Positions 12,217 to 12,378 of a stretch of DNA of 30,410 nt are shown one piece after another; position 1 is the first letter of the stretch; every line of letters starts with the position of its first letter. The position numbers and the translations under genes were made by a program. A model generated the notes under the pieces. That model did not search any database. It saw only the letters and a program-made list of their open reading frames with translations, and was not told the DNA's origin. The DNA is from Myxococcaceae bacterium (GTDB lineage: Bacteria; Myxococcota; Myxococcia; Myxococcales; Myxococcaceae). The DNA is taken from positions 1-30,410 of the forward strand of contig DASVVJ010000282.1 of the NCBI GenBank assembly GCA_036389955.1, given 5' to 3'.

Positions 12217-12247
12217 GGGGGATTCCTGCTCGTTGGGGGGTTCCCCC

Positions 12248-12263
12248 GCCTCCAGTGCGAGCC
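12248..12263 (-). promoter_or_regulatory. Sigma-54 (RpoN)-type -24/-12 promoter candidate for the MVP gene.
   Basis: The minus strand reads TGGCACG-CGGC-TCGCA against the consensus TGGCACG-N4-TTGCA, with GG-N10-GC spacing kept. The element lies 32-48 nt upstream of the MVP GTG. Confidence 0.45.
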
Positions 12264-12311
12264 GCGTGCCACCTGTTTTCAGCGCGCCGCCGCTCTAGAA
12301 CGGACAACCCC

Positions 12312-12326
12312 CGCTCCAGAATGGAG
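12312..12326. promoter_or_regulatory. Palindrome GCTCCA-GAA-TGGAGC about 50 bp upstream of the -24 element. It is a possible enhancer-binding-protein (UAS) site.
   Basis: The inverted repeat is read directly from the sequence. A related half-site GCTCCAGA repeats at about 12338. Confidence 0.3.
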
Positions 12327-12378
12327 CCGCTTGGCCGCTCCAGACCGAGGCCCCCTGCACCACCCTGGAACGCTCGCT

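Follow-up and report, generated by a model that had tools for sequence, protein, structure and literature searches.

A predicted NtrC-type sigma-54 promoter module conserved upstream of a major vault protein homologue in myxobacteria

The stretch of DNA analyzed here (the window) spans 30,410 bp and is one contig of a 'Myxococcaceae bacterium' assembled from a metagenome. [quoted passage not shown] The nearest non-bacterial relatives of this protein are the eukaryotic MVPs, at 33–40% identity. MVP homologues of bacteria have been described earlier (bioRxiv 10.1101/872010), and a literature search on their regulation found no paper. Upstream of the gene lies a codirectional gene for a CPBP/Rce1-like membrane protease, whose stop codon at 12381-12379 forms the upstream boundary of a conserved regulatory block. 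The spacer from the protease gene to MVP is 162 nt long (12217-12378), and its features are collected in Table 1.

The GTG start of the window MVP aligns with an ATG in three Corallococcus loci (L014, L015 and L017), the deposited gene call gives the identical 762-aa protein in agreement with this start, and a TAG in frame at 12297-12295 leaves no room for an N-terminal extension. Several near-identical metagenome calls in the same protein cluster (P0122, P0126 and P0132) are 836 aa long, with 74 additional residues, and probably run through the promoter region. On the far side of the spacer, the protease gene in its longest frame (minus strand, starting at 13899) shares 160 nt with the beginning of a divergent esterase/CBM20 gene on the plus strand (13739), and the true protease start is probably further downstream. 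At the other end of MVP, a gap of only 36 nt (9892-9927) with no predicted terminator separates its stop codon from a flavin amine-oxidase gene (8200-9891), and the latter overlaps a peptidoglycan-binding/GH19-like gene (7196-8302). Both genes may be co-transcribed with MVP in the window genome; the MVP/amine-oxidase arrangement is peculiar to this contig and is not kept in other loci. Elsewhere in the window, the G+C content drops to 0.63 between 21000 and 23250, compared with ~0.69, and two long minus-strand open reading frames there (21297-22106 and 21985-23235) have no Pfam match; this region could have been acquired as an island, or it may be degraded or non-coding.

Table 1 Genes and predicted regulatory features at the MVP locus of the window.
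Feature	Position	Strand	Description
CPBP/Rce1-like membrane protease gene	12379..13899	-	Upstream of MVP, same direction; Pfam; outside the module
Predicted activator site 1, GTTCCA-ggg-TGGTGC(A)	12357..12371		Centre 12364, ~-119; dyad pattern, one mismatch
Predicted activator site 2, GCCTCG-gtc-TGGAGC	12337..12351		Centre 12344, ~-99; left arm degenerate
Predicted activator site 3, promoter-proximal, GCTCCA-ttc-TGGAGC	12313..12327		Centre 12320, ~-75; exact dyad
Possible fourth-site remnant, weak, CCGTTCTAGAGC	12292..12303		Five conserved columns: three invariant, two nearly so
Variable spacer, activator sites to promoter	12271..12291	-	Contains a 10-11-bp stretch absent from Corallococcus
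Predicted sigma-54 promoter core, gTGGCACGcggcTCGCAc	12255..12272	-	PWM score; conservation in 21/21 loci
Predicted transcription start	12245	-	12 nt downstream of the -12 C; sigma-54 geometry
Predicted 5' leader	12217..12244	-	Conserved GAACCC and GCAGG
MVP (major vault protein) homologue	9928..12216	-	762 aa, GTG start at 12216; Pfam

On the minus strand, the spacer reads TGGCACG at 12271-12265, a 4-nt CGGC and TCGCA at 12260-12256. The GG of the -24 half occupies 12270/12269 and the GC of the -12 half 12258/12257, a canonical GG-N10-GC in coding-strand orientation. An earlier sequence-only reading had proposed TGGCACG-CGGC-TCGCA as an RpoN promoter with correct spacing, and both the sequence and the GG-N10-GC geometry on the minus strand are as it described. 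It had placed the element 32-48 nt before the start codon, which is wrong: the real distance is 40-55 nt, with 54 nt from the GG and 39 nt from TCGCA to the GTG. To score the element we used a PWM derived from 76 experimentally validated sigma-54 promoters (the Barrios compilation, via S2 Table of PMC12316311). It reaches 10.9 of 23 bits and ranks fourth in the whole window, in which 4.1 such or better matches are expected by chance; likewise, TGGCAC-N5-TTGC with one mismatch allowed is found three times against 2.5 expected. The three higher-scoring PWM matches are all antisense within genes, and the MVP element is the sole such match in an intergenic region facing a gene, where ~0.01 are expected for a 162-nt spacer in this orientation. 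In the PWM scoring, which the same reading had proposed as a check, the element has an ordinary score for this window. From the window alone, the promoter match is no better than chance and is a lead rather than a finding. It gains significance only because it is conserved in orthologous loci, where the homologous site scores 7-13.6 bits with the same PWM and ranks 1-7 per 10-kb locus. The TCGC at -12 also occurs in the validated glnA and nifF promoters of Klebsiella and the glnA promoter of Proteus, and the flgI promoter of C. crescentus has TGGC at -12 (S2 Table of PMC12316311). A promoter scan of the 162-nt spacer found no sigma-70-type promoter, no minus-strand terminator is predicted in it, and an Rfam search of 12000-12600 returned only a sub-threshold match (E = 0.88). 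A terminator-like hairpin on the plus strand covers the -24/-12 element; there is no gene there, and we take it as chance.

For comparison, 23 loci from species-representative genomes were retrieved via an alignment of myxobacterial MVPs, covering Hyalangium, Archangium, Vitiosangium, eleven Corallococcus species or strains and several MAGs, and more distant MVP loci were obtained by exact-protein look-up. Cultivable carriers include Corallococcus coralloides KYC2213, C. exercitus SDU142, Hyalangium versicolor H56D21 and Vitiosangium sp. GDMCC 1.1324, whereas the search gave no MVP for some other genera, Myxococcus among them. All 23 relatives with at least 78% protein identity for which upstream DNA is available have the GG/GC element at a constant distance from the start codon of MVP. 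With the strict pattern GGCA(C/t)G-N4-T(C/G)GCA, it is found 51-57 nt before the start in 20 of 22 loci; L010 has the variant GGCACACGGTTGGCA, and the -24/-12 element is also present in L027, a contig with a 78%-identity MVP. The conservation profile was obtained from a 21-sequence alignment of the Archangiaceae-type genera (Hyalangium, Archangium and Vitiosangium) and Corallococcus. Throughout this alignment (21/21 loci) GGCA and T-GCA are invariant, the spacing is fixed and no indel falls within the element. Position -26 is variable, with T in just two of the 21 loci, and position -14 is C in 14 and G in seven but never the consensus T; both positions are also variable among validated sigma-54 promoters.

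The genes flanking MVP are unrelated in 21 of the 23 loci, and only L001 has the protease and esterase of the window beside it. Yet upstream similarity starts exactly at the edge of the window spacer and extends to the start codon, so that a block of ~160 bp is kept and can be assigned to the MVP gene itself. Between the Archangiaceae-type clade and Corallococcus, the -24/-12 15-mer has an identity of 0.90 and the three dyads 0.62-0.67, with core bases that are invariant or nearly so. The corresponding values are 0.586 for four-fold synonymous sites of MVP, 0.30 for the stretch from site 3 to the promoter (12312-12271) and 0.27 for the DNA upstream of the ~160-bp block. The result is a clear phylogenetic footprint, and it falls on precisely those bases that sigma-54 reads. 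No conserved operon partners of MVP were found, with neighbours differing between loci. A side observation from comparing window positions 9928-12378 with L001-L022 is that MVP acts as an autonomous unit together with its ~160-bp control region, by way of either frequent rearrangement or transfer.

Downstream of the promoter core, the column of the predicted +1 (12245) holds a G in all 21 loci, and a Shine-Dalgarno-like GCAGG at 12229-12225, ~8 nt before the GTG, is conserved. Nearly invariant in the same 21 loci are also the CGGC between the two promoter halves (12261-12264) and, together with the +1 G, GAACCC at approximately +4 to +9 (12237-12245, minus strand). Both the CGGC and the GAACCC are conserved beyond the known needs of sigma-54. 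The CGGC hints that another factor reads this DNA in addition to sigma-54 or in its place; an overlapping second factor, or a function of the leader, is possible.

These positions bear on a first alternative, namely that the conserved elements are operators at which ordinary transcription factors control a sigma-70 or ECF-type promoter, and that the GG/GC element only resembles a sigma-54 site. One candidate is an ECF-like GAAC...GTC promoter in the leader. GAACCC is conserved downstream, and most loci have TGTC ~5 nt before the start codon, but the window itself has no GTC and reads GGAATCC; an ECF promoter at this place would moreover yield a leaderless mRNA, yet the Shine-Dalgarno-like GCAGG is conserved. 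Neither was a -35/-10 pair found in the window spacer, and no conserved TAnnnT is evident in the alignment. Even though the CGGC is over-conserved for a sigma-54 promoter and the PWM score is moderate, the invariant positions are exactly the ones read by sigma-54, at fixed spacing, and their combination with NtrC-like boxes is typical of sigma-54 control. We therefore consider an ordinary sigma-70 or ECF promoter improbable.

Upstream of the core, the sequence-only reading had noted a perfect GCTCCA/TGGAGC palindrome ~50 bp from the promoter and a repeated half-site, and had likened the arrangement to the UAS of an enhancer-binding protein (bEBP). The palindrome is exact, GCTCCA-N3-TGGAGC at 12327-12313 on the minus strand (GCTCCAGAATGGAGC in the plus-strand reading, 12313-12327), with its centre 50 nt upstream of the GG, and GCTCCAGAATGGAGC is the sole zero-mismatch match to GCNCCANNNTGGNGC in the window. 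The half-site, GCTCCAGA in the plus-strand reading, is indeed present at 12337-12344 and turns out to be the right arm of a middle dyad, of which only this half had been noticed because the left arm is degenerate in the window. The likeness to a UAS can be extended: there are three conserved dyads, about two helical turns apart, in what would be the standard bEBP layout.

Across the loci, the CCA and GG cores of site 3 are invariant or nearly so. Site 2 has TGGAGC in 19 of the 21 loci and becomes a perfect CGCTCCA-N3-TGGAGCG in L005 and L007. In site 1, the CC and the final G of the cores are invariant and the A, the T and the first G of TGG are kept in 19-20 of 21; L004 and L005 have a perfect GCGCCA-N3-TGGCGC, and in the window the right arm is identical to the enteric NtrC half-site TGGTGCA. 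Pooling 126 half-sites gives the consensus YGC(T/G)CCA and, for the full site, YGC(T/G)CCA-N3-TGG(A/C)GCR. This half-site (YGCKCCA) agrees with the enteric NtrC half-site TGCACCA at six of seven positions, the enteric NtrC box being TGCACCAnnnTGGTGCA (PMC8743547). The resemblance suggests an NtrC-type box and leaves the identity of the binding protein unspecified.

The three dyads are spaced 20-22 and 23-24 bp centre to centre in all loci. Relative to the GG, their centres lie at -94, -74 and -50, and at approximately -84, -62 and -39 in Corallococcus, that is, all three are shifted together by ~11 bp. A shift of this size is close to one turn of the helix and keeps the sites on the same face, which would be expected of a DNA-bound activator that has to reach the polymerase. 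Where the window has the weak fourth-site remnant, four Corallococcus loci (L014, L017, L019 and L020) have an aligned dyad G(T/C)TCC(A/G)-ggg-CGGA(A/G)(C/G), 13-14 nt upstream of the GG, which is perfect in L020 only.

We combined promoter and boxes in a composite search of both strands of the window and L001-L028, ~290 kb of myxobacterial DNA in all, which asked for a PWM score of 7 or more and for no fewer than two boxes in the 125 nt upstream. The MVP upstream region was recovered in 19 of the 22 module-carrying sequences, and the other matches re-use the same boxes: two are on the opposite strand (L016 and L017) and one is a deletion allele in L023. This allele (L023:3915-4040, Corallococcus sicarius CA040B) keeps the three boxes GCGCCAGTCTGGAAC, GCGCCGGAATGGAGC and GGTCCAGGACGGGGC and is without the sigma-54 promoter, the leader and approximately the first 415 MVP codons, so that the boxes directly adjoin ...LMLRLGPDF....

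A second alternative is that the dyads act as RNA or DNA hairpins, forming a terminator or attenuator for transcripts from the upstream gene. The arms are complementary and some of their changes are symmetric (GCTCCA/TGGAGC versus GCGCCA/TGGCGC), although pair counts of the arms have the same prediction for a DNA palindrome and an RNA stem. What is kept is the sequence of the CCA/TGG core and not the pairing, with many copies asymmetric outside the core (GATCCA...TGGACG). The stems are just 6 bp with loops of 3 nt and no T-run follows; no terminator is predicted on the minus strand, and Rfam contributes nothing. In the window the upstream protease gene is codirectional, in line with this alternative, but the dyads persist though the upstream gene differs at almost every locus. 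Hence, we regard a hairpin function as very improbable. The last alternative, a chance match without function or a block that is an N-terminal coding extension of MVP, draws on the high chance expectation in a single window and on several 836-aa calls in the 90% cluster, and is untenable on the comparative data, with conservation far above the neutral level, the in-frame TAG, indels of 1, 2 and 11 bp in the block and the deposited 762-aa call all against it.

The module is absent from MVP genes at 66-67% identity (L021, L024 and L025). These have instead a conserved sigma-70-like TTGTCC-17 nt-TA(C/T/A)GAT ~170 nt before the ATG (L021:3700-4000, L024:2013-2312 and L025:1701-2000). The AT-rich L026, with a 49%-identity MVP, has neither the sigma-54 nor the sigma-70-like module. 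Among the loci with DNA, the module is thus absent beyond the clade of MVPs with at least 78% identity. As distant MVP genes are without the module and have a sigma-70-like element in its place, the sigma-54 motif is no by-product of the MVP 5' end, and the module appears to be a lineage-specific acquisition. In the same distant loci, ACACTTTC stands before the sigma-70-like element. L021 and L025 have in common an extended conserved leader, ...AAAGCCCACGCATGTC...CTGTCTCCTTTCTCT...GGAGGAA, of which L024 has only a part; it could be a regulatory 5' UTR, and the L021 leader has an inserted long, nearly perfect inverted repeat.

A search of all six frames of the window and of the 23 loci with 4-kb flanks found none of the bEBP signatures GAFTGA, ESELFG and Walker-A. 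By Pfam, no bEBP or RpoN is found among the 20 window proteins, and there is no rpoN in the 30-kb window or within 4 kb of MVP at any of the loci. This indicates that the activator is encoded elsewhere. The class Myxococcia has rpoN, an essential gene of M. xanthus, and each of its genomes encodes about 50-70 bEBPs (PMC12316311). Three activators of known site consensus, NmpR, PexR and Nla28, were compared as candidates, and none matches the MVP boxes. The sequence-only reading had suggested developmental or stress control; this is still conjecture, with no bEBP gene near MVP.

A promoter-plus-box scan of metagenomes had no MVP among the at least 120 loci listed and about half of the matches listed were intragenic. 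These matches are mostly chance and uninformative for the regulon. In three of the metagenome contigs (L063, L042 and L094), the motif stands with 2-3 boxes upstream of a NarK-like transporter or a Bug-family solute-binding protein; such genes resemble ordinary NtrC targets of unrelated bacteria, which fits an NtrC-type box.

We consider it likely that the 162-nt spacer is an enhancer-dependent, NtrC-type sigma-54 promoter module for MVP. Its motifs and their geometry are selectively conserved with MVP across two clades. It has the sequence-level features by which sigma-54 promoters and NtrC-type enhancers are predicted, namely the GG-N10-GC spacing, the footprint, and tandem dyads with an NtrC-like half-site on a preserved helical face; its PWM score is ordinary for the window. 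From these we infer that transcription would depend on sigma-54 and begin near the predicted start, and that the dyads would be bound by an activator, probably one of the NtrC family. In the mechanism that we propose, sigma-54 RNA polymerase would form a closed complex on the -24/-12 element, and dimers of an NtrC-family bEBP would occupy the three tandem dyads at approximately -75, -99 and -119. On an activating signal, either phosphorylation or a ligand, the dimers would assemble into an ATPase ring, which would contact the polymerase via DNA looping and, by ATP hydrolysis, convert the closed into an open complex. Transcription from near 12245 would then give a 29-nt leader with GCAGG before the GTG at 12216. 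No IHF-like site was seen. Read-through may add MVP transcripts in this genome, given that the protease gene is codirectional and no terminator is predicted.

The mechanism itself is textbook, and the value of the module lies in its target gene. It is a first clue to when a bacterial vault-protein homologue is made: a promoter of this type is unable to fire without its activator, and MVP would hence be made only on a specific signal. To specialists in myxobacterial regulation this will not be surprising, given how many bEBPs each genome encodes. In practice, the three-box fragment can serve as bait for the activator, and complete genomes of Corallococcus or Hyalangium can be searched with boxes and promoter together for genes under the same control. 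A bolder reading, which we find unlikely at present, is that MVP and its module form a self-contained unit under the myxobacterial counterpart of NtrC, a regulator of nitrogen or starvation responses, and that vault shells are made specifically on nutrient limitation or during development. As a related point, an ancestral promoter, sigma-70-like in the deeper MVP clade, would have been replaced here by an enhancer-dependent one. If true, NtrC-controlled vaults would fit the old storage hypothesis and give a first physiological handle on the vault protein.

A close known parallel is the enteric glnAp2 promoter with NtrC (NRI), which also combines a sigma-54 -24/-12 promoter with several tandem upstream dyads. 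The strong NtrC sites of glnAp2 lie at -108 and -140; those predicted for MVP, at -75 to -119, are nearer to their promoter. TCGC at -12 is a variant shared with the glnA promoters of Klebsiella, Salmonella and Proteus. In enteric NtrC the third position of the half-site is A, in contrast to T or G in the MVP boxes; otherwise YGC(T/G)CCA-N3 is close to TGCACCAnnnTGGTGCA, and site 1 has the exact TGGTGCA arm (PMC8743547). The target is also different, with nitrogen assimilation in enteric bacteria and a vault-protein homologue here. A myxobacterial host has dozens of NtrC-like activators, so that the one acting on MVP could be another than the nitrogen regulator.

Within the myxobacteria, a bEBP-bound sigma-54 architecture with three dyads is known from PexR of M. 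xanthus, for which three tandem interrupted palindromes precede the sigma-54 promoter at katB and ahpC, conserved across myxobacteria (PMC12754779). The PexR box is CACCG-n6-CGGTG and pexR adjoins its target, unlike MVP with no nearby bEBP gene; PexR control is validated by 5'-RACE, mutagenesis and ChIP (PMC12754779), whereas the MVP module is predicted from sequence. NmpR, an NtrC-like response regulator, likewise binds two tandem dyads upstream of a sigma-54 promoter, at mxan_4236 and pilR, of which the promoter-nearer one is essential (PMC11841059). Its dyads are GCGCA-N5-TGCGC with 14-15 bp between sites, compared with CCA-N3-TGG and 5-9 bp between the 15-mers at MVP, and it controls another regulon. 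The activator sites of Nla28 in M. xanthus are 8-bp CT(C/G)CG(C/G)AG repeats, often intragenic and unrelated to the MVP boxes, but its promoters have the same overall design, TGGCACG-N4-TTGC(T/A) with activator sites upstream (PMC7910581, PMC9765219).
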